DNA from: Deltaproteobacteria bacterium | GTDB taxonomy: Bacteria; Myxococcota_A; Polyangia; Fen-1088 | Assembly (NCBI GenBank): GCA_033763315.1 | Contig: JANRKS010000020.1 | Location: 54,489 to 118,488 of the forward strand | Length of the DNA stretch: 64,000 bases | Direction: 5' to 3' | In this document: one piece after another, positions 12,653-22,783 of the stretch | Numbering within the stretch: the stretch's first letter is position 1 | Layout: each line of letters opens with the position of its first letter | The notes under the pieces: model-generated | The model's input: only the letters and a program-made list of their open reading frames with translations | Database searches by the model: none | Told to the model about the DNA's origin: nothing | Made by a program: the position numbers and the translations under genes

Positions 12653-12867
12653 TTGTGCCATTGCCTACACAGGCGCACCTGTGAAACGCGTGTTTGCGAC
12701 AGCGACCGGCGGCGAAAGTTACATTTGCGCCGATGGCTTCAGGTTTGCTGTGGGGCAATCGATGGTTGGTGCTGGATTTTATGCGTCAACGCAAAGTATT
12801 ATTTTGCGGCCAGCGAACTAGCCCTGATACTCGCAGCAAAGCAATGAGAGTCCCGGTGGGAGGAATT

Positions 12868-15800
12868 ATGCGAAAAGTAGCCCTAGCAGCAGCGTTTTTG
12901 TCCGCGACAGTTGTCGCAGGATGTGGTGATGACCTTCCGTCGAACATCGACGCCAACGTCGTCGTAGCCGATGGCGGCGGCGGCAACACGGGCGAAGGTG
13001 GGGTCCTCCCGGACGCAGGTTGCCCCAGCGCTACGTTTATCTCGCCGGTACCGGCTGCGAAGCTCACCGCGGCGGATGACGTGGACGATCAGTGCAAAGC
13101 CAATGGCTTTCAGATTGACGTGAAGCTGGCCGTTGGCGCTCCCGATGGCACCCCGGTTACCTTGCTGGCGAACAACACACCGGTGGGGACTCCCGGTGTG
13201 GTTACAGGGGGCACGGTGACTTTTGCGGGTGTTTCGCTGGCGACGAGCGGTGCATCGGCACTGGTCGCGCAGATTGGCAACGCGACGGGCTGTACGGCAA
13301 GCAACACGGTAGACATCAATTGTTCTGCGGTCACCTGTAACATCACGAAGCCGGTAATCAGCGAGGCTCACCCCAAGCTGAACGACGTACCGGTGGCAGA
13401 AGGCGGAGACCGCGTGAGCTCGCCCGGGTCTGACTACCAGGCCGCGTTTGAAGTGACGACGAACGCAGGCGACAACAGTGTTGTGCAGCTGCAGGTTCGC
13501 CGCGCCGATGCGCCTGACGCTGTCGTTAACGTGAACGCCACCGTTTTGGGCGGAAAAGCGAATTTCCCCGGCGTGGCTTTGCGGCCGGATGGTGCTTTTC
13601 AAATTCAAGCAGTGTGTAGGTCCGGAGCCGTTGAGGGACGCTCGCAGTTAGGCACCTTCACAGTGGATACGGCGAAGCCTGATTTGACGGTGACGTCACC
13701 GATCGCGAATCAGTTCTACGGTCCTAGCACGGGACCTGGCGACCTTGATGGCAAGGTTGTCAATGGCAAATTCAAGGTTTGCGCCAGCACCATGGCGGCT
13801 GACGCAACCAATGTGGGGATGGCCATAAACGGCGGCAAGAACTTGGGAGCAGCGATAGGGACATCAGCGATGACCTACGTCCCTGTTGCCGTTGGCGGTT
13901 CTGCTGGCAGCGGATGCGTCGAATTGGATTGCCTCGGCGGTGCGCCGTTCTCAGTCAACGTGTCTCTACGAGACGATGCTGGCAACGTTGCGACTAAGTC
14001 GATTGCGGGCGTCACCTGTGCCTCTGCGCTTCCAGGCGTGCAGATTGTTCAGCCAGTATCAGACTCAGCACCATACACTGATCCTTCCAAGCATCTCCTT
14101 GCTGCGAACGCAACGCAGGCGTTCAAGGACAACGATCCGGCGATTGGCGGCGCGCAAACCCTTGTGGTCGCTTGTACGGACAAGAAGCTTGCGAAGGCTA
14201 AACTCTTCGTCGGGGTGGAAGGCGGCGCGCTTGACCAGGTGGGGTCGGAAGTAGATGTTGTCGATGCCGTGACGGGCGATGGCTGTCCTGCGGGTCTCGG
14301 GTTCGTCGCAAAATGGCCGAAAGCTACTCTGCGCGACAGCACAATGAACACCGCAGGGGGGCTCATCTCGCCGACTCAGCTTCGTGTCGAAGTAACGGAG
14401 GTTTCTTCGGCCAAGGGTCAAAGTCCCATCGTGAGCCTGTGGGTTGATTCTACTGCTCCTACAGCAGATCCCCGAACACCCGCATGCGGAACACTGATCG
14501 AATCCACTGTGGACCAGACACGCGAGCTCACCCTGATAACGTCATCCGCCTTGATCAAGCTGGTGGTGACGTCGAACGGCGCTCCGGCTGAATACGACCC
14601 GACAAGTATCCTTGGTAGCGTCGCGACTTTCTCAAACGTGCTCTTAAAGGTAGGCGAGAACGTACTAACGGCGGTTGTGCGGGATCCAGCCGGCAACCAG
14701 TCAGGCTTGAGCGGGGCTGCCTGCGCCATCAAGGTGGGCACGCCCCCCATCGTGAATTTCGTTTCGCCGGCGACAAATGCAAAACTCTGTGCTGTAGGTG
14801 GTTCAGGCTGCGTCGCAGATGCAGACGGCGCTACGGATGGTTGGCAGGGCACCGTCACTGTTTCGGTTACTGTTGCCGGAACTCCAGCTACGACAGGCAC
14901 CGTGACTCTATCTAAGACAGGAGGAGATGCTATTGGGACTTCCAACGTGGTCAATGGCGTGGCCACCTTTTCAAGCGTCACGATTCCTGAAGGCACCGTG
15001 GCTATTTTAGCTGCCACCAGCGAATACCCATCGGCCGGAGTTGGTACAACAGCCTCCGCATTCACAGTCGATTCAAAAGTTCCCTCGGCGGTCGCCTCTT
15101 TGAGTGCGGAGATACTTACAAGGCGAGAGTCGTCGTTTAAGCTTCGCTGGACGGCCCCTGACGACAATGGCCAACCCGCCGCGGCCTACGATATTCGAGT
15201 CTCCGAGGCCCCCTTGACCGAAGGAAATTTTTCTGCGGCTGAGGCGCTGACGTTTGCCGGTGTTCCGGCCGCTTCGGGCCAAGCAGAAGCCCTGGATGTT
15301 CGAGGCCGGAAAATCGAAGCTGACTACTACTTCGGTGTCGTACCAGTCGACGCGGCCGGCAACCGTGGCCCCCTAGTGAAGCTCGATTTACCCACCCGCG
15401 CCTCCTTCAATAGGACCATCCTCAGCCCGCCGAGCATCGACCCCGACCAAACCAAAGAAGACGAGGCCGGCTATTCTGTCTCAGGGTACGGAGATCTAAA
15501 CGGAGACGGCCGTGGCGACGTCATCGTGGGGACTCGACTAGGCAAGCGGGTGTTGGTCTATTTCGGCACGGCAATGTTCTCTCCCGACGCTCCCTCGCTG
15601 ACTATCACCGGAACCAGCGCCGGCTTTGGGCGGCATGCCATGCTTGTAGGCGATGTTGTTCAAAACCCTGATGAGCCGTCTAGTAGCAGCAAACCGGACC
15701 TAGCTGTGGCGTCTTCGGCCAACAAGATGTTCATTTTCGCGGGTCGGACGACCTGGCCCGCGACATTATCGGAGGCTGACGCTGATTTCGTTATCGACGG

Positions 15801-16734
15801 CGCTGGTAGCTCTGGACTTTTCGGTTACGTCTTGGCTCCTCTCGGGGATTTCGACTCGGATGGCATAGACGATTTGGCAATAGGAAATCCAACCTATGCC
15901 AGCAAAGGCCGGGTAGTGATTCTCCGTGGCTCCAAGTCTATGCCCGACACGGTATCGGTACCGGATGCTGCGAGGACCATACTGATCGACGGTTCGGCTG
16001 CTAACGGCCTCTTTGGCCTCAACTTGCAGGGTCTAGGCAAATTCTATTCTGGCGCAGGGGCGAGCCTCGTCGTTGGCGCTGACAGGGCCAACAGTGACGC
16101 CGGCAAAGTCTACGTTTACAAGGGGCAGGCGGCGTTGTCTGGTTCGATTACTTCCTTCGATGCCAGTATTGACGGATCGCCGGGCAGTCGCTTGGGAGGG
16201 AATTTGGCAACGCTGGGACCAGTTAATGGCAGCACGAATGCCATCGGGCTGGCTTCGCTGTTCGCCGGAACCGGCGTCGTTCAATTGTACTTCGGCAACG
16301 AAACGGCAGGTCCCCTTGGTGGCACCTCAAAATCACTCACGAATGCGTCAGCGGTTGGTACGAACCAGTTCGGAATCGTCACCATCGGTGGGGCCTTCTC
16401 GGGTTCGGTGGCGGCATTTTCGCTGATAGGCAACGATGCTCCTGATATCGTTGTCGCTCCAACCCGCGAAGGCTCGGCTCCAGGCAAGCTCTATGTTTTG
16501 GATGGCTCGCAATTGGGTAGCTTGGCGGCGTCCTCCGACGTAACGACCGCGGGAATAGCGTCCGTGGTATTGCCTTTGCCCAACGGCGAGAATGGAACGC
16601 GACCGTGGTTGGGGAATTCCAGCTTCAGTCGCCTCGTAAGGGATGTGGATGGTGATGGATACGTTGACCTTGCCATAGGCGAAGGCTCGTTGCCGGCATC
16701 CGACCGGCGTGGGCGAGTTCTTGTCTTCTGGTAA
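12868..16734 (+). CDS. Large surface lipoprotein: Ig-like domains, FnIII and FG-GAP (integrin-alpha-like) beta-propeller
   Basis: GGAGGA RBS before ATG 12868; lipobox VAGC; LRWTAPDD..YDIR (FnIII); GDLNGDGRGDVIVG, GDFDSDGIDDLAIG, DVDGDGYVDLAIG. Confidence 0.85.
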   Translation: MRKVALAAAFLSATVVAGCGDDLPSNIDANVVVADGGGGNTGEGGVLPDAGCPSATFISPVPAAKLTAADDVDDQCKANGFQIDVKLAVGAPDGTPVTLLANNTPVGTPGVVTGGTVTFAGVSLATSGASALVAQIGNATGCTASNTVDINCSAVTCNITKPVISEAHPKLNDVPVAEGGDRVSSPGSDYQAAFEVTTNAGDNSVVQLQVRRADAPDAVVNVNATVLGGKANFPGVALRPDGAFQIQAVCRSGAVEGRSQLGTFTVDTAKPDLTVTSPIANQFYGPSTGPGDLDGKVVNGKFKVCASTMAADATNVGMAINGGKNLGAAIGTSAMTYVPVAVGGSAGSGCVELDCLGGAPFSVNVSLRDDAGNVATKSIAGVTCASALPGVQIVQPVSDSAPYTDPSKHLLAANATQAFKDNDPAIGGAQTLVVACTDKKLAKAKLFVGVEGGALDQVGSEVDVVDAVTGDGCPAGLGFVAKWPKATLRDSTMNTAGGLISPTQLRVEVTEVSSAKGQSPIVSLWVDSTAPTADPRTPACGTLIESTVDQTRELTLITSSALIKLVVTSNGAPAEYDPTSILGSVATFSNVLLKVGENVLTAVVRDPAGNQSGLSGAACAIKVGTPPIVNFVSPATNAKLCAVGGSGCVADADGATDGWQGTVTVSVTVAGTPATTGTVTLSKTGGDAIGTSNVVNGVATFSSVTIPEGTVAILAATSEYPSAGVGTTASAFTVDSKVPSAVASLSAEILTRRESSFKLRWTAPDDNGQPAAAYDIRVSEAPLTEGNFSAAEALTFAGVPAASGQAEALDVRGRKIEADYYFGVVPVDAAGNRGPLVKLDLPTRASFNRTILSPPSIDPDQTKEDEAGYSVSGYGDLNGDGRGDVIVGTRLGKRVLVYFGTAMFSPDAPSLTITGTSAGFGRHAMLVGDVVQNPDEPSSSSKPDLAVASSANKMFIFAGRTTWPATLSEADADFVIDGAGSSGLFGYVLAPLGDFDSDGIDDLAIGNPTYASKGRVVILRGSKSMPDTVSVPDAARTILIDGSAANGLFGLNLQGLGKFYSGAGASLVVGADRANSDAGKVYVYKGQAALSGSITSFDASIDGSPGSRLGGNLATLGPVNGSTNAIGLASLFAGTGVVQLYFGNETAGPLGGTSKSLTNASAVGTNQFGIVTIGGAFSGSVAAFSLIGNDAPDIVVAPTREGSAPGKLYVLDGSQLGSLAASSDVTTAGIASVVLPLPNGENGTRPWLGNSSFSRLVRDVDGDGYVDLAIGEGSLPASDRRGRVLVFW

Positions 16735-18511
16735 ACCAACGTTCTCCCACTTTTGTGCGGTCTTTACGGATGAGGACGGCGCAATGTGGGCCAGTCTCCC
16801 GGCGACGGCGATACGCGTTCGTTGGGAAGACTGGCCGGCAAATACCGCCACACATGCCCTTTATTCGGACGGTGATAGAATTTGCCTCGCAACTGGACGT
16901 GTAGATAACCTCAGCGACTTAGGGAAAACAGCAGGCATCAATGTCCCCTTTGGGACAAATCTTCCCTTCTGTATAGCGGCGCTGTACCGAAAATTGGGCA
17001 GCAGGCTGTTTGACAAGATCGAAGGCGACTTATCGGTTGTAATTGGAGATCGTCCAAGCCGAAGTGTGCTTGCGTATCGAGACGCATTCGGCGTAGGACA
17101 ACTATTTTCTTGGGAATCAGGGCGAACCCAGATTCTGTCTTCGTCCTGCGACCTTTTGCTTTCGCTATTGCCGCGGAGGCCAGCGATCGATGAAGTGACG
17201 GTGTGCGAATACCTTTCGGGACGCCCTCGCTTCCTAGATCGCACTTACTTCAAGACGATACGTTCGATCAGGCCCGGTCATGTCGACGTGACATCCGGGG
17301 GCCGTCGGCAGACCAGTTGCTCAACCCGCTTGACGCCCAAAGGCGACGCCGAGGAGAGCGACGTGATTTTCGCTCTACGGAAGTCCGTGTGGCATCGCCT
17401 TTTCGACACGCGGAGCGCAGTTGTTCATTTGAGCGGGGGTCTTGACTCATCAGCGATATCCGCTCTGGCGGATGCTTTGAAGAATGATGGTGAACTCCCT
17501 TCGACTGATCTCCACCTCCTTTCTTCTCTTTTCCCTGGGACGGCCTCGGATGAGAGCCGGGGGATACGGAGGACCTTGACGCAGCTCCGCTTGCCCTGGA
17601 AATCACGTGACGCGACATCCTTCCCATTCTTCTGCCCTTCAACGATTGCTCTCGATCGCCCATCGTTTCGCCCGTGGTTACTAAACCCCGATCCTACCGA
17701 GTTCGCCCTAGCCCGCGAAGTCCACGCAGAAGCGAGCTTAACTGGCTTCGGTGGTGACGAACTCTTCTATTCAGTCGGGGCGATAGCCGAGGCCTTGAAG
17801 GCTGGCCACCTAGCAACGTTCGCCAAACAGTTGTTTAGGTTTACTCGGTGGCACCATAGAGGTGCCGTTCTGGCGACTATCAGGGACGCATTACAGGCTG
17901 AGAAGCTTGGTAAATGGCCGTGCGCACCCGTAACACCTCCACCCGAGTGGTTGGCCCCAAATGCAAGACCTTACTGGGAAGAAATGAACCGGTCACCCGT
18001 CGACTATGCGATCGAACCATCCGAAGCGACCGAGAACGTGACACTCAGTAGGATTTTCGGGCCATCTATGCTGCGATCAGCGCATTCGAGGACTTGGATT
18101 GGAGCTGAAAATGGCGTTGCGATGAGATTTCCGTACCTTGAGAAGGACGTTGTCGAGACGGTCCTGGGATTGTCCCGACGCCCACCGAATGGCGATGCGC
18201 GCCATCTTCAAAGGAACATGCTCAAAACCCTCCTTCCTTTTGTCGGGGTCCAGAGGCGGAAGAAGACATCCGTAGGCCCGGTGATGTGGTCTAACCTTCG
18301 AAAAATACGAACCGAAATCGCCGACTATTGGCGTTCCGATTGGCTGGTGGGGAGTTATGTCGAGCGCAGCTTCGTGGGGGCTGCGGACAAGGCACTGTCG
18401 AAAGTATTAGATCCTGGCCCACATACGCCTGTCTGGAGTCTGCCAATCCTTAGGGTGCTTACGCTAGAAGCTTGGCTGCGAAGGATTTCTGGCTATAATA
18501 GACTGTCTTAA
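16709..18511 (+). CDS. Asparagine-synthetase-like lasso peptide cyclase (C protein)
   Basis: AYRDAFG, HLSGGLDSS (ATP pyrophosphatase loop), LTGFGGDELF, RFPYLE; adjacent to precursor, B2 and RRE genes; start uncertain. Confidence 0.85.
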   Translation: MGEFLSSGKPTFSHFCAVFTDEDGAMWASLPATAIRVRWEDWPANTATHALYSDGDRICLATGRVDNLSDLGKTAGINVPFGTNLPFCIAALYRKLGSRLFDKIEGDLSVVIGDRPSRSVLAYRDAFGVGQLFSWESGRTQILSSSCDLLLSLLPRRPAIDEVTVCEYLSGRPRFLDRTYFKTIRSIRPGHVDVTSGGRRQTSCSTRLTPKGDAEESDVIFALRKSVWHRLFDTRSAVVHLSGGLDSSAISALADALKNDGELPSTDLHLLSSLFPGTASDESRGIRRTLTQLRLPWKSRDATSFPFFCPSTIALDRPSFRPWLLNPDPTEFALAREVHAEASLTGFGGDELFYSVGAIAEALKAGHLATFAKQLFRFTRWHHRGAVLATIRDALQAEKLGKWPCAPVTPPPEWLAPNARPYWEEMNRSPVDYAIEPSEATENVTLSRIFGPSMLRSAHSRTWIGAENGVAMRFPYLEKDVVETVLGLSRRPPNGDARHLQRNMLKTLLPFVGVQRRKKTSVGPVMWSNLRKIRTEIADYWRSDWLVGSYVERSFVGAADKALSKVLDPGPHTPVWSLPILRVLTLEAWLRRISGYNRLS

Positions 18512-18529
18512 CTGATAGCGGAACCGCAT

Positions 18530-18697
18530 ATGACCAAGCAAAGCTCGAAGGCCAAGTCCGTCACTGAACTGAAAGAGAAATCCTACAGGGCTCCCGAGGT
18601 GAGGGCTGTGGGAAACCTAAAGGACTTAGTGTCAGGTGGACTGGGAACTGTCCAGGACGGAGGAGAGCTTCCAGGTGAGGATCGACAGGCTCAATAG
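18530..18697 (+). CDS. Lasso peptide precursor (55 aa; not in ORF track)
   Basis: MTKQSSKAKSVTELKEKSYRAPEVRAVGNLKDLVS|GGLGTVQDGGELPGEDRQAQ*; YxxPxVxxxG leader; Gly1 and Asp8 in the core. Confidence 0.88.
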   Translation: MTKQSSKAKSVTELKEKSYRAPEVRAVGNLKDLVSGGLGTVQDGGELPGEDRQAQ

Positions 18698-18709
18698 CAA
18701 AGGTGACTG

Positions 18710-19066
18710 TTGCTCAGAGCGGGCATCCTAGTGTGTCTGGTGGCGCCCTTGGTTGAAGCCTTGCGAAGGTCTTCTGATGCCGCCACTGCGCTTGGGATTT
18801 GTAGAGCCGTAGGACGTTATCAACCGACGAAGGAAGGAAGATTCAAGGACAGCCTCGCCCGATGTGTGTCGGGAGTGGATCTTCGGATGCCTGGAGGACC
18901 AAACTGTTTTCGGAGAGTACTTCTGCTCTCCGCATGTGATAGGTCTGCTGCGCTGACGTCGGTTAAATTCGGAATTGTGGCGGGTGGCGGGGCTAAGTCC
19001 GGTCACGCCTGGCTGGCATCTGAAAGTGTGGATGTAAGCCTCTACGACGCGGTCTTCGACCTATAG
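18710..19066 (+). CDS. Lasso leader peptidase (B2, Transglut_core3-like)
   Basis: PNCFRRVL (Cys), GHAWL (His), VKFGI; 118 aa; AAGGTG RBS before TTG. Confidence 0.82.
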   Translation: MLRAGILVCLVAPLVEALRRSSDAATALGICRAVGRYQPTKEGRFKDSLARCVSGVDLRMPGGPNCFRRVLLLSACDRSAALTSVKFGIVAGGGAKSGHAWLASESVDVSLYDAVFDL

Positions 19067-20082
19067 TTTCTGATCGCGGCTTGAAGACTGTCAAGGTTGC
19101 TTGGACTGTCGAGTGCCGCTGAACGGCAATTAGCAGCGAGGTGGCACGCGGACCTAAATGCCCCTATCAACGTGGGTGGTTGCGAAGTTCCGATAAAGAG
19201 ATTCTGAAACAACTCAGTAGCAGCTTCAAGGGGCGCAAGCTGTCGAAATCCGAACTCCTCTCTGTCGCTACGTCTCTGGGCGCTAATGTGCCATATCCAC
19301 GAAAGCGGCTCCCACGAGTCGGTCGAAAGCACTGGGAATTCTAAGTACGAGTGGTGATCAGCTGCGAGGTGGGTTGCTGCGGCCCGAGCCCATTCCCGAA
19401 CTTGGCTTTCAAATGTAGAGGCCACAAGCGGCTGCGACTCCTTGTTAGCGGATCGGAGACCCTGTACTACGCAGAGATCCTCTGATACCAGCCTAGCTCC
19501 TTGGCTCTGAAAGGCACGTGCGAGTGTCGTCTTGCCGGCCCCACTGTGACCGACGGCCATAACGGTTTCTCCTTCCACTTGAAATGCGGAAGCGTGCACT
19601 ACGAAGTGTCCCCGCGCGGAGAGCAACTTGGGTGCCACCGCTAGAAGCGCTCGATAGGCGAAGGACATTTGTCCCTCCAAAGGACCAGCGAGCCATCGAA
19701 TGACGAAGTCTTCTTTTTCGATGTTTACGATTGCCGATTTTTCGAGCGTGAGTTCCCAGCAGTCCGCCTTTTCAACAAAGGAGAAGTCGCCGGTCCATCT
19801 CGCTCGTTCGAGGGGTACAAAGTCCAACAGGTGTGACAACAATGTCGAACTAATTCCGACCGCCTCCGGCAACGATACCTTCATCAACTCAGCTACCTGG
19901 GAGAAGGCAGCTTCCATGCTGGGAGAGCTTAGGAGCACCTTTATGACCAGCTGCGCCTCGTCATTGAGGCTGAAGAGCTCACCAGTCTCGGCATCAAGGA
20001 GTAGGGAATCGAGAGCCACAGATTGCAGAAAGAAGCGGCTCTTAAGGTCCTTGATTTCCATGTGAGGTTTCGATGTAGTCAT
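19042..20082 (-). CDS. RRE(PqqD-like)-fused HPr-kinase-related kinase
   Basis: N-terminal LLLDAETGELFSLNDEAQLVI (RRE-like); C-terminal VHASA...GHSGAGKTTL...LVSEDL. Confidence 0.8.
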   Translation of the reverse strand: MTTSKPHMEIKDLKSRFFLQSVALDSLLLDAETGELFSLNDEAQLVIKVLLSSPSMEAAFSQVAELMKVSLPEAVGISSTLLSHLLDFVPLERARWTGDFSFVEKADCWELTLEKSAIVNIEKEDFVIRWLAGPLEGQMSFAYRALLAVAPKLLSARGHFVVHASAFQVEGETVMAVGHSGAGKTTLARAFQSQGARLVSEDLCVVQGLRSANKESQPLVASTFESQVREWARAAATHLAADHHSYLEFPVLSTDSWEPLSWIWHISAQRRSDREEFGFRQLAPLEAATELFQNLFIGTSQPPTLIGAFRSACHLAANCRSAALDSPSNLDSLQAAIRNYRSKTAS

Positions 20083-20363
20083 TCGGGTTGGCCCGGTTGG
20101 ATATCCAGCAAACCCCAGGCTTGTAGTTTGCCAACCACCGACGACACATCGGAAGTTGCTGCCTCACCTCCGCCGCACTCATTCTTAACCTCTTTGATCA
20201 AGTCTTCGAGAGATGTCGGCTTGGAGAGCATCCTCCATACGAAGTAAGCAGTCTCGTTGAGTTCCCAGCAGTCCCCCGAGCGCGCGTCAACGAGTACTGC
20301 TCCGGCGCTGGTTGGGCGGCTCAGGACGTTAGGATTGGTCTGATATCGCATCCGCACATTCAT
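20079..20363 (-). CDS. Stand-alone RiPP recognition element (PqqD / lasso B1)
   Basis: AVLVDARSGDCWELNETAYFVWRML...DV...xLQAWGLL; ATGA overlap with the kinase; ORF extends to 20375. Confidence 0.9.
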   Translation of the reverse strand: MNVRMRYQTNPNVLSRPTSAGAVLVDARSGDCWELNETAYFVWRMLSKPTSLEDLIKEVKNECGGGEAATSDVSSVVGKLQAWGLLDIQPGQPE

Positions 20364-21183
20364 GGCTGTCAGCAAGGTCTTTAGCTCTTGACCCCTCCCA
20401 TAGCGTGGCTATCCCTGCAAGTTAACACTGCCGAAGCATCAGTTAGCGCCTGAGCGTTGGCACGATGAAGGCATTGACGTTGATCTCTCTCCTAGGATAC
20501 CAGGAACCAGGGTGTTGTTGTAAGGCGAGGTGCATCCATCACCCCTTCACGCGATGGCCTCGCAGTCGGGCAATCAACCCGTCGGACGATTGATCCGGTG
20601 GTACTGCCTGCCGTTTTTAACGCTGGCTCGTGTTTGTACGGCTTGGCTCGCTGCCAATCAAACCAACTGCGAGGAGAGAGGACCTCACGCTGCAACAGTG
20701 CCCCAATCACTAGCAATGCCTCTTTACCTTGTCCTCCAGCACGACCCAAAAGATCGAAACAATACACTGGACGTTCGGCCGCGCGCAGGCTCGACGCTCC
20801 TCCATGACCGGTTCGGGCGAAGGCGCATCGCATCCTACCTAGAGCTGGTGGCGCGGTTCCTTACAAGAGAGGTGGGGGGCCCGGAGACGATGAAGAGACG
20901 TCCGCCTTGTTCGATGCGGCTCAGCTTGCCAACCCATGACGAAGCGCCCTACATCCGCGTCCGGGGGTTCACCGCTGCTTTGCCTGCCGTAATCGTCACC
21001 CCCTCGCGGACGACTTGCACCCGAACGATGCCGGGGATGTGGTGTTGAGCCAGACTGATGGCCAGCCGTATCGAGCCTCCCCAACTGACGAAGATGAGGC
21101 GATCCGTCGTGCGGATGGCGCCCCCATTTCAAAGCTTCTTTGCACGAGCGCTCCGTGCGGCCGCTGCGCAAGAAAGACCCGCA

Positions 21184-21748
21184 TCAGCCCCCCAAGACAT
21201 CGCGCACAGAAGCCGCCGTCAGGGCCGCCGCATGCCACTTCCGCAACAACGCAACGTCGCGGCTGCGTTCAATGCGTTCGCGCTCTTCTTCCAGCGGTTC
21301 CAATCCCCGTAGGCGCAGCACGGCGAGAACCGCTTGCGCTAGGCGATAGGCCTCTCCCTCCGCCTTGCCCTCCGCCTTGCCTTCCGCCTTGCCTTCGCTG
21401 TGGGCCCGTCGAAGGCTTTGGTCTTGGAATTGGTAGTTTTGTGGAATCATGTTCAAAGCCTTTTTGACTTGATCGCTCAGTGCAGCCCGGATGAGATCGT
21501 AATAATACATCGCCGTTCGACCGTCGGGCAGGCTCAGCGCCGCCTCGATGGCCGTGCGAGCTATCTTGACTGCGCGGGTCGTGTTTTTGTCGTGCCCGTG
21601 GCAGATCGCCGAAAGAACCGCTAACGCTGTGTTCTGTTCAGCTTGCGCCAAGTCCCCTACGGCAGGCATTTGGTCCGGCCCCAGGACAACACGAGGAAGG
21701 CTGCTCTCGAAGCATTTCTACGATCGCTTGGTGTCGTTGCGACGGCAC
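21184..21748 (-). pseudogene. Internally deleted Rpn-like / PD-(D/E)XK-associated protein
   Basis: N-terminal MPSQRHQAIVEMLREQP (GTG 21748) is out of frame with VLGPDQMP...LAVLSA..HG...(EGKA)n...LRKWHAAALTA. Confidence 0.65.
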
Positions 21749-21862
21749 ACCCGGTCTTCGGCACACGCTCGCAACTGTTGCTTACAAAACGCAACCGCCC
21801 TCAACACACTTAAGCGGTGGTATTCTTGGCGTTTCGAAACGAACGTCTTTAAGCGATATCAG

Positions 21863-22783
21863 ATGCCTCAAAGCAACGACGATCTCTTCTCCCGCAATCT
21901 CACGCACACCCAGCAGCTCTTGCGGGAGGCCGAGGAGGTGCTGCAACGGCTTGCTAGGAACCGCGCGGCCATGGCGCGGCCGCGCGTGATGGTTCCAGCT
22001 TTGGTCGAGCCGCCACCGCCCCACGTGCCCGAACCCCCACCGCCTTTGGAGCTCTTGGCCAAGCGGCGACGAGCGCCGAACGAAATAACGCATGAGGAAC
22101 GAAGTGGTTTTACGCGCCTTTTCGCCAAGCGCGGATTTATCGTCAATGCCGACCTGCGCGCTATTTCCGGGTTGGACGTGGCGCAGGCAAGCGTGCGTCT
22201 GCGTGTTTTCCGTAACGCAGAATTATTGCGACAAGATGGCCTTGGTTCCCTGACAAAATATTACCCCGGTCCACGGTGGCAGCCCCTAGAGCTGGAACCG
22301 CATGCCGCGCCCCCGCCCAATCCCGCTGAGATAAACGTCACCATTGGCACGCCACGCGATGTACAAGCGCTTGCAAATCTGCGCGCGCAACAGGTGCAAC
22401 CAATGACCGTTGTTACATCAAGCGAGGCGTCAGGCAAAATCGAGAATTTATTGCGGCAGTTGCGCTCGCGCCGCAATGTTCTGCTTCTTGCATCCGATGT
22501 GGAGGGCAATCTCGTCGGTTATTTGCACTGCGGCTTGGACGAAAAACGGGGCGATCGCATCGGCTCTATCTATGCGTTCTATCTTGCCCCTGGTGCGCAC
22601 CAGAACGCTCGGCTTCGTTTATTTGAAACCGCGAAGCGGTGGTTGACCCAACAAGGCGCCTTAAGGATTCGTGTGCAGGTGCCGCATGAGGCCTCGCCCG
22701 CGCAAGCCTTCTTTGCAGAGCAACAATTTAACCCCGCCAGCGTTGAAATGGAGCTGTTTGTGGGAGCCACGGTCAAGACGTAA
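21863..22783 (+). CDS. Winged-helix + GNAT acetyltransferase fusion
   Basis: GFIVNADLRAISGL...LLRQDG.G..TKY (wHTH-like); C-terminal LVGY...IYAFYL.P...AQAFF (GNAT). Confidence 0.65.
   Translation: MPQSNDDLFSRNLTHTQQLLREAEEVLQRLARNRAAMARPRVMVPALVEPPPPHVPEPPPPLELLAKRRRAPNEITHEERSGFTRLFAKRGFIVNADLRAISGLDVAQASVRLRVFRNAELLRQDGLGSLTKYYPGPRWQPLELEPHAAPPPNPAEINVTIGTPRDVQALANLRAQQVQPMTVVTSSEASGKIENLLRQLRSRRNVLLLASDVEGNLVGYLHCGLDEKRGDRIGSIYAFYLAPGAHQNARLRLFETAKRWLTQQGALRIRVQVPHEASPAQAFFAEQQFNPASVEMELFVGATVKT

Follow-up and report, generated by a model that had tools for sequence, protein, structure and literature searches.

A putative lasso peptide kinase with an N-terminal RRE-type domain, encoded in a compact split-B cluster of a Polyangia genome

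Lasso peptide kinases are put to use for tailoring, and rules of substrate choice have been established for two modes only, one directed at a C-terminal Ser and one at Ser3 of the ring. The paeninodin-type kinases (PadeK, ThcoK, SyanK and PsmK), HPr-kinase homologues encoded in lasso clusters, phosphorylate the linear precursor (PMC8498205); their target is the C-terminal Ser and their precursors carry Thr at leader position -2. The substrate of BsfK has Ile(-2), a Gly1-Asp8 ring and Asp at the C-terminus, and the kinase phosphorylates its ring residue Ser3. Thr is also accepted, the leader-bearing precursor is required, B1 strongly accelerates the reaction, and every Ile/Val(-2) lasso cluster found by the same authors encodes a kinase (PMC10368454). 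An HprK-like kinase of peptides that are made on the ribosome and modified after translation (RiPPs) acts on Ser3 of a linear core (PMC13381572). Here we describe a kinase gene in a 64,000-nucleotide stretch of contig JANRKS010000020.1 from a Deltaproteobacteria bacterium of the class Polyangia (assembly GCA_033763315.1, positions 54,489 to 118,488; the whole stretch is called the window below). Its product most likely serves a minimal split-B lasso cluster as tailoring enzyme and is a complete kinase with an extra, B1-like RiPP precursor recognition element (RRE) at its N-terminus. A reading of this DNA from its letters alone (the original prediction) had started from the premise that known lasso kinases phosphorylate a C-terminal Ser, which is out of date given the action of BsfK on ring Ser3 (PMC10368454).

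The likeness between kinase residues of about 15-90 and the neighbouring PqqD protein, which had been proposed from the sequence, was recovered in the sequence itself, in relatives, in the AlphaFold2 model and in searches with both Foldseek and VIA-align. Residues 27-43 of the kinase read LLLDAETGELFSLNDEA and the same residues of the discrete B1 read VLVDARSGDCWELNETA; BLASTP between the two proteins gave 12/38 identities (E 1e-4). The NCBIfam model lasso_PqqD_Strm matched kinase residues 27-71 at E 4e-5 with 23.8 bits, below its cut-off of 70, and Pfam PqqD (PF05402) gave no match to the window kinase up to E 1. Among 80 aligned relatives of the kinase Pfam PqqD matched 68 at E <= 1e-3, and a precomputed PF05402 match stood on 6 of the 7 non-self homologues returned by a word-indexed search. 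G34, N40 and A43 of the RRE part are each at least 90% conserved across the 80 relatives.

AlphaFold2 modelled the whole kinase with a predicted local distance difference test score (pLDDT) of 94.1 and a predicted TM-score of 0.91. In the N-terminal part, at pLDDT >90, strands at residues 17-22, 25-30 and 35-38 are followed by helices at 41-52, 56-67 and 71-86, the three-stranded sheet and three helices of a winged-helix fold. When the full-length kinase sequence was searched against the PDB, only P-loop noise came back, with TfuB1 at E 0.57, and Foldseek with the whole model returned the kinase domain only, hence the N-terminus was also modelled by itself (pLDDT 88.4). With this isolated domain Foldseek placed TfuB1 (6jx3_B) first (E 3e-3, TM-score 0.56/0.62, root-mean-square deviation (rmsd) 2.6 A over 76 columns) and TbiB1 next. 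VIA-align, run against 48,161 chains, ranked TfuB1 first (Z 8.1, rmsd 3.0, 81 aligned) and TbiB1 second (Z 7.8, rmsd 2.8, 79 aligned), a Z near 8 counting as middling. These best structural matches of kinase residues 9-89 (6jx3, 5v1u/5v1v) are free-standing partners of B2 peptidases, whereas the window domain is fused to a kinase and has a separate B1 beside it. We regard the resemblance as settled because the relatives and the structures support the PqqD fold, the window protein alone giving weak signals; the models thereby support an RRE-type fold for the kinase N-terminus, as had been predicted.

The remainder of the protein appears to be a whole kinase. The HPr-kinase-like motifs named in the original prediction are present, as HAS at 163-165, GHSGAGKT at 178-185 and SED at 200-202, and are accompanied by R270-R271. 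Pfam Hpr_kinase_C (PF07475) matched at E 1.5e-4 with 21.8 bits (cut-off 33.3) and the NCBIfam models HprK_rel_A/B (TIGR04352, TIGR04355) at E ~8e-6 with ~25 bits (cut-off 200), in each case under the cut-off. Foldseek with the whole model found phosphoenolpyruvate carboxykinase (PEPCK; E 3e-5) and the HprK/P structures 3tqf_B (2.7e-4) and 1kkl_C (1.1e-3). Atlas structure matches, to 'serine kinase' clusters of 266-340 aa, cover kinase residues 92-346, and because the kinase hits span these residues the RRE is an addition to the kinase and not a replacement of its N-terminal part. Across the 80 relatives H163, G178, G183, K184 and D202 are invariant, and S180, G181, A182, T185, T186 and E201 are at least 90% conserved. 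In BsfK the motif H148-G163-G166-G168-K169-S170-D186-D187 was shown to be important by mutagenesis (PMC10368454), and the spacing of the window motif (H..15..G..6..K-[ST]..16..[DE]-D) is identical to it, with Thr for Ser (T185) and Glu for the first Asp (E201), both of them the majority residues in the family of the window kinase. A degenerate or inactive kinase was rejected, all motif residues being intact; the enzyme is probably active and would phosphorylate its precursor.

The RRE fusion is, judged by sequence matches, a trait of the family and not a peculiarity of the window. An exhaustive, profile-free search with the kinase returned 1910 representatives at E <= 1e-3, of which 204 reached E <= 1e-10, and the match started at query residue 31 or earlier, so that it included the RRE, in 133/150 listed representatives. 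The nearest Atlas clusters by features hold 92, 213 and 51 members, and PqqD is found on 59-80% of members. The architecture is abundant in databases, where its usual labels are hypothetical or 'PqqD family'. Within a sample of 401 genomes of the phylum, an HprK-like match (E <= 1e-10) was present in 71, and the RRE part was reached only in the window genome and two others; the RRE-fused kinase of locus L002, from a metagenome-assembled genome named 'Polyangia bacterium', comes from this sample. Within a sample of 401 genomes of the class the kinase matched at E <= 1e-28 in 36, and 32 of these class-sample loci were fetched with their context (L079-L110); in the window's own family the kinase was present in 32/71 sampled genomes. 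A genome-contig search seeded on the P-loop pattern confirmed 2 loci among at least 599 stretches, and a metagenome-contig search gave 2 loci, L049, where B1 is followed by the fused kinase, and L050, which does not have the appearance of a lasso locus.

A profile built from B1 matched both the discrete B1 and the kinase N-terminus in nearly all fetched loci, the exceptions to the two-RRE pattern being three loci cut by contig ends, L109, whose kinase has no RRE part, and L110. At L110 (G1075:C7, 6100-7064) the kinase covers only profile positions 171-332 in a 213-aa frame, and the gene is probably frameshifted because an RRE-like piece sits in another frame. A tandem RRE-RRE-kinase arrangement, with B1 joined in frame to the front of the kinase RRE, was seen in L106 (5758-7038) and in protein P0003.

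The closest characterised enzyme is BsfK. It shares with the window kinase the HPr-kinase-like P-loop architecture, the same catalytic motif and spacing, a split-B lasso cluster bordered by an FG-GAP protein, a hydrophobic residue at leader position -2 (Ile in bsf, Val in the window) and a core that lacks a C-terminal Ser; both belong to the same phylum, judged from the genome searches. An acceptor within the future ring of a leader-bearing substrate is established for BsfK and proposed for the window kinase. The bsf cluster has D and N genes, which the window cluster does not. Seven loci of another family in the same phylum proved to be of bsf type, with Ile/Val at -2 and cores of the form G-x-S3-G4...D8 in 7/7, and one of them, L111, fits every feature given for BsfA and BsfK (Ile at -2, a core GTS...D8...D of 21 residues, and His148 in the kinase). 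Between its kinase and that of the window, the alignment spans only 44 catalytic-core residues (45% identity). PqqD was absent at E <= 0.01 from all 4 bsf-type kinases scanned (that of L111 and 3 more), whereas the RRE-fused kinase of L002 matches, and because bsf-type kinases show no PqqD match the closest characterised enzyme lacks the RRE fusion. Set against the BsfK type, the window has an expected residue at -2 (Val34, for Ile/Val), Leu3 in place of Ser/Thr3, and a domain architecture that is not BsfK-like.

The window also differs from the paeninodin type, as its core ends in Gln and its leader has Val(-2). Kinases of the phylum whose profile match begins at position 63 or later, with no RRE part matched, go with Thr(-2) leaders (L036-L043, L109, L120-L122, L124 and L126-L128; PqqD was not scanned in this set), and 5/16 of the precursors in this set end in Ser. 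An HprK-like kinase is likewise paired with a PqqD-like protein in the cassettes of HprK-related kinase A/B with a PqqD chaperone and of ScmC/ScmD (TIGR04352, TIGR04355, TIGR04353, TIGR04248 and PF27840). In those cassettes, however, each protein is modelled as a gene of its own, and a lasso cyclase does not appear in the model names; the window proteins match them weakly and far under the cut-offs, the kinase domain to TIGR04352 and TIGR04355 and B1 to TIGR04353 and TIGR04248.

The precursor encoded beside the kinase has the leader motif Y19xxP22xV24xxxG28N29, followed by V34(-2) and S35(-1). The canonical leader spacing (Y-17, P-14, V-12 and G-8 in the window) puts the start of the core at G36, and the core G36-Q55 reads GGLGTVQDGGELPGEDRQAQ. 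The original description of this core held when it was read again: it ends in RQAQ and has no C-terminal Ser, its only Ser, Thr or Tyr is Thr5 (residue 40), and Ser35 stands at the cleavage site as residue -1. The predicted ring is G1-D8, and the core opens G-G-L-G4-T5, with Leu at position 3.

We counted residues in 35 precursors, namely those of the window, of 31 family loci (all 32 but L080, which was too short) and of L002, L034 and L035, with junctions placed by the canonical Y-17/P-14/L-12/G-8 spacing. All but one accompany an RRE-fused kinase. At position -2, 26 have Leu, 8 have Val and 1 (L109) has Thr, and position -1 is Ala in 29, Gly in 4, Ser in 1 (the window) and Leu in 1. Core position 1 is Gly in 27 and core position 8 is Asp in 28. 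Ser or Thr occupies position 5 in 24 precursors, position 4 in 8 and position 3 in 15, and at least one of the two residues lies within ring positions 2-5 in 35/35; the C-terminal residue is Ser in 2. An alignment of 28 related precursors, which omits L081 and L088 (ambiguous starts), L094, L095 and L098 (precursor sharing the frame of C), L083 and L109, showed P22, G28, N29 and D43 (D8) to be invariant. For L034, L035 and L108 the canonical spacing gives Lys at position 1, and MAFFT aligns their Gly with Gly1. As a separate observation, exactly two Cys are present in 17/35 related cores, in many cases one at ring position 7 and the other at the C-terminus or close to it, pointing to a subclass braced by a disulfide; the window core has none.

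The kinase and its precursor were modelled as a complex. The median ipSAE (interaction prediction score from aligned errors) was 0.83, against 0.00 for the best control, a mark reached by 58/80 solved complexes and by 2/110 mismatched pairs. Runs agreed in at least 69% of contacts, with a partner pLDDT of at least 54. In the contacts of lowest error, precursor residues 22-31 lie paired against kinase residues 33-43, which comprise strand 3 and the beginning of helix 1; the leader is received on the same strand 3 in TfuB1 and TbiB1. Precursor contacts with the kinase extend from Tyr19 to Val41, past the junction as far as core residue 6, and run across kinase residues 95-104, 144-152 and 289-309. 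As modelled, the leader would bind the kinase's own RRE by strand addition to beta3. Because complexes of B1 with leaders have already been solved (6jx3, 5v1u), the score may reflect likeness to them.

On this evidence we consider it rather probable that a leader-guided kinase with its own RRE phosphorylates Thr5, followed by B1/B2 cleavage and ring closure by C. The fused RRE would take hold of the precursor through its conserved leader segment P22-K31, which would pair with it as a beta-strand, and would thereby keep the junction of leader and core, together with core residues 1-6, against the kinase domain. The P-loop site (K184/T185, H163, E201/D202) would move a phosphate from ATP to Thr5, in the future ring. 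The discrete B1 and B2 would then cut the leader off after Ser35, and C would close the G1-D8 isopeptide ring to give a ring-phosphorylated lasso peptide. For this scheme we infer the acceptor residue, the order of the steps and the enzyme activity. Thr5 is favoured because it is the sole core hydroxyl, because a hydroxyl within ring positions 2-5 is universal in the family with position 5 the most conserved, and because ring phosphorylation has precedent. Leader-dependent phosphorylation of ring Thr5 was also one of the options that the original prediction put forward; the modelled leader binding and the standing of Thr5 as the best candidate acceptor speak for it, while the class of site, the ring, was already published for Ser3 of BsfK. 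The further claim of new RiPP chemistry falls away, as phosphorylation of a ring Thr would be a positional variant of known reactions (PMC10368454; PMC13381572).

Several points weigh against this scheme. The window kinase lies under every curated family cut-off in Pfam and NCBIfam. A separate B1 is kept in the cluster, and as efficient turnover by BsfK depends on B1, the fused RRE may be insufficient by itself or may have another role. The acceptor in BsfK is position 3, with strict regioselectivity (PMC10368454), where the window has Leu3. The confident contacts of the complex model exclude the P-loop, H163 and D202, and the model does not place Thr5 in the active site. Lasso rings are commonly rich in Gly, Ser and Thr, so the conservation of a ring hydroxyl could be structural rather than driven by the acceptor, and the counts come from kinase-bearing loci. 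The sampled genomes are also kin, which makes the precursor counts overstate independent support, and with Ser/Thr at position 3 in 15/35 and at position 5 in 24/35 the counts do not fix the acceptor of the family. Neither exporter nor nucleotidyltransferase genes were found between 12.7 and 25.4 kb in the window.

The retained B1 is the starting point for a different reading, in which the N-terminal RRE fold is not a leader receptor and docks B1 (or B2 or C) or has a structural part, the leader being delivered through B1 in trans as for BsfK. B1 stands beside the kinase in nearly all related loci and is fused ahead of the kinase RRE in L106 and P0003, BsfK is strongly accelerated by BsfB1 (PMC10368454), and the RRE of the window kinase is the most divergent of the family against the B1 profile (E 3e-4; others 1e-5 to 1e-16). 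However, in the complex model the leader's conserved segment lies along strand 3 of the kinase RRE in the canonical mode, with controls at 0.00, though this pose may be carried over from the solved B1 complexes. The at least 90% conservation of G34, N40 and A43 in the fused RRE across the 80 relatives also argues against the reading, as does the fact that the B1-reliant BsfK-type kinases have no such domain (0/4 match PqqD at E <= 0.01). We hold this reading to be unlikely.

The kinase could also be active with a Thr5 phosphate that is neither its target nor its end product. The phosphate might go to the leader or junction residue Ser(-1), to the mature lasso peptide in self-protection or export, or be a transient group that is eliminated to a dehydro residue. 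Ser35 does sit at the cleavage site and is among the modelled precursor contacts (residues 19-41), and a title cited in PMC13352647 names a dehydroalanine-containing lasso peptide from a 'hybrid biosynthetic system'. Yet Ser is found at position -1 in 1/35 precursors, that of the window, and Ala in 29/35, so that the leader Ser(-1), one of the sites originally offered, is unlikely to be a conserved target of the family. No lyase or other tailoring gene was found in the cluster by family scans of the window proteins, and the lasso kinases characterised so far take the linear precursor, not the threaded peptide, as their substrate (PMC8498205; PMC10368454). Overall we give this group of outcomes a low probability. 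Nothing in the analysis supports a carboxylate, the remaining site of the original prediction, and this candidate was rejected; an HPr-kinase-type P-loop kinase would not be expected to phosphorylate one. Less probable again is a cleavage one residue earlier, after Val34, which would give a core beginning with Ser35, a nine-residue Ser1-Asp9 ring and hydroxyls at Ser1 and Thr6. Nine-residue rings and Ser1 cores exist among known lasso peptides, and the junction register is not rigid, as MAFFT aligns L034, L035 and L108, the nearest three relatives from outside the family, as ...DLV-G with a one-residue gap at -1; but the canonical Y-17/P-14/L-12/G-8 spacing starts the core at G36, that register gives Gly1 in 27/35 and Asp8 in 28/35 precursors, and the window Ser35 aligns with the Ala(-1) column.

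Ring phosphorylation and leaders without Thr(-2) are already published. In the literature searched (the supplementary figures of PMC10368454, which possibly list relatives, lay outside this scope) we found no RRE fused to a lasso or HPr-type kinase, no two-RRE layout with a discrete B1 beside a fused RRE, and no precursor family with Leu/Val(-2)-Ala(-1) and G-x-x-G-[ST]. This large family, as yet uncharacterised and with what would be a leader receptor of its own, would be the first RRE-lasso kinase fusion in that literature. Such an enzyme offers a self-contained, leader-guided peptide kinase for engineering, and the two RREs of one pathway that would share one leader form a natural experiment. 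Phospho-Thr5 within the ring is a defined prediction, and the conserved Leu/Val(-2) Ala(-1) junction widens the recently recognised set of lasso leaders without Thr(-2). More tentatively, and we think it rather unlikely, the RRE-fused kinases could be a third, uncharacterised class of lasso kinase, in which the RRE acts as a molecular ruler that fixes the acceptor at ring position 4-5 rather than at position 3 or the C-terminus, the two RREs order phosphorylation before cleavage, and the peptides co-diversify with the FG-GAP protein. If true, this co-diversification would hint at a receptor-ligand or cell-surface role rather than that of a classical antibiotic.

Positions and strands of the predicted features in the window, with the evidence for each
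Feature	Position	Strand	Evidence
Large FG-GAP repeat surface protein; conserved cluster neighbour, cluster membership not claimed	12694-16734	+	Pfam FG-GAP E 6.6e-15
C, lasso macrolactam cyclase, asparagine-synthase-like, 600 aa; exact start uncertain	16709-18511	+	Pfam Asn_synthase E 7.8e-21
A, precursor peptide, 55 aa	18530-18697	+	leader motif and core read from sequence
B2, leader peptidase, transglutaminase-like, 118 aa	18710-19066	+	weak profile matches and conserved position
K, kinase (RRE and HPr-kinase-like), 346 aa	19042-20082	-	fold models, motifs, relatives
K residues 91-346, small beta subdomain and HPr-kinase/PEPCK-like P-loop domain	19042-19812	-	motifs, profiles, Foldseek
K residues 1-90, PqqD/RRE winged-helix domain (fold ~10-90)	19813-20082	-	AlphaFold2, Foldseek, VIA-align, NCBIfam
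B1, discrete PqqD/RRE protein, 98 aa	20079-20375	-	Pfam PqqD E 7.6e-14, 52.2 bits, over cut-off

The kinase gene lies inside this compact, split-B lasso cluster together with A, B1, B2 and C, and C-A-B2 on the forward strand is convergent with K-B1 on the reverse strand; the same gene order recurs at related loci, which are arranged alike. The 3' ends of the convergent B2 and kinase genes overlap by 25 nt, and the start codon of the kinase overlaps the stop of B1 as ATGA, read directly in the DNA. Against the lasso cyclase models of NCBIfam the cyclase scored E 1e-22 to 1e-25, all under cut-off. The profile matches of B2 were weak and below cut-off (Pfam Transglut_core3 E 0.0096, NCBIfam lasso_biosyn_B2 E 0.0063); its position is conserved, and it shares 30-60% identity with its counterparts at related loci. 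In three genomes of one genus the cyclase frame continues stop-free into the precursor (L094:3541-5727, L095:3613-5703, L098:7411-9471), which could be either a cyclase-precursor fusion or an internal start of the precursor.

An FG-GAP homologue was observed beside the cyclase in 25/35 related loci and near 7/7 bsf-type loci (the observation covers L079-L110 and L111-L119), and the bsf cluster is also bordered by an FG-GAP protein (PMC10368454). This FG-GAP/lasso linkage, which spans two classes of the phylum, may be functional. At L105, from the same genus as the window, identities to the window proteins are 80.7% for EtfA, 36% for the FG-GAP protein, 23.7% for C and 24.8% for the kinase, between conserved flanks; the window block 12694-20375 looks hypervariable or repeatedly replaced. 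Other neighbours in the window are two open reading frames without a family, a Uma2 nuclease gene and electron transfer flavoprotein (ETF) genes. The two frames, which have no family match, overlap each other (21184-21669 on the reverse strand and 21548-22783 on the forward strand) between B1 and the Uma2 nuclease gene. The 161-aa frame contains a threefold EGKA repeat and has a partial relative in L123.

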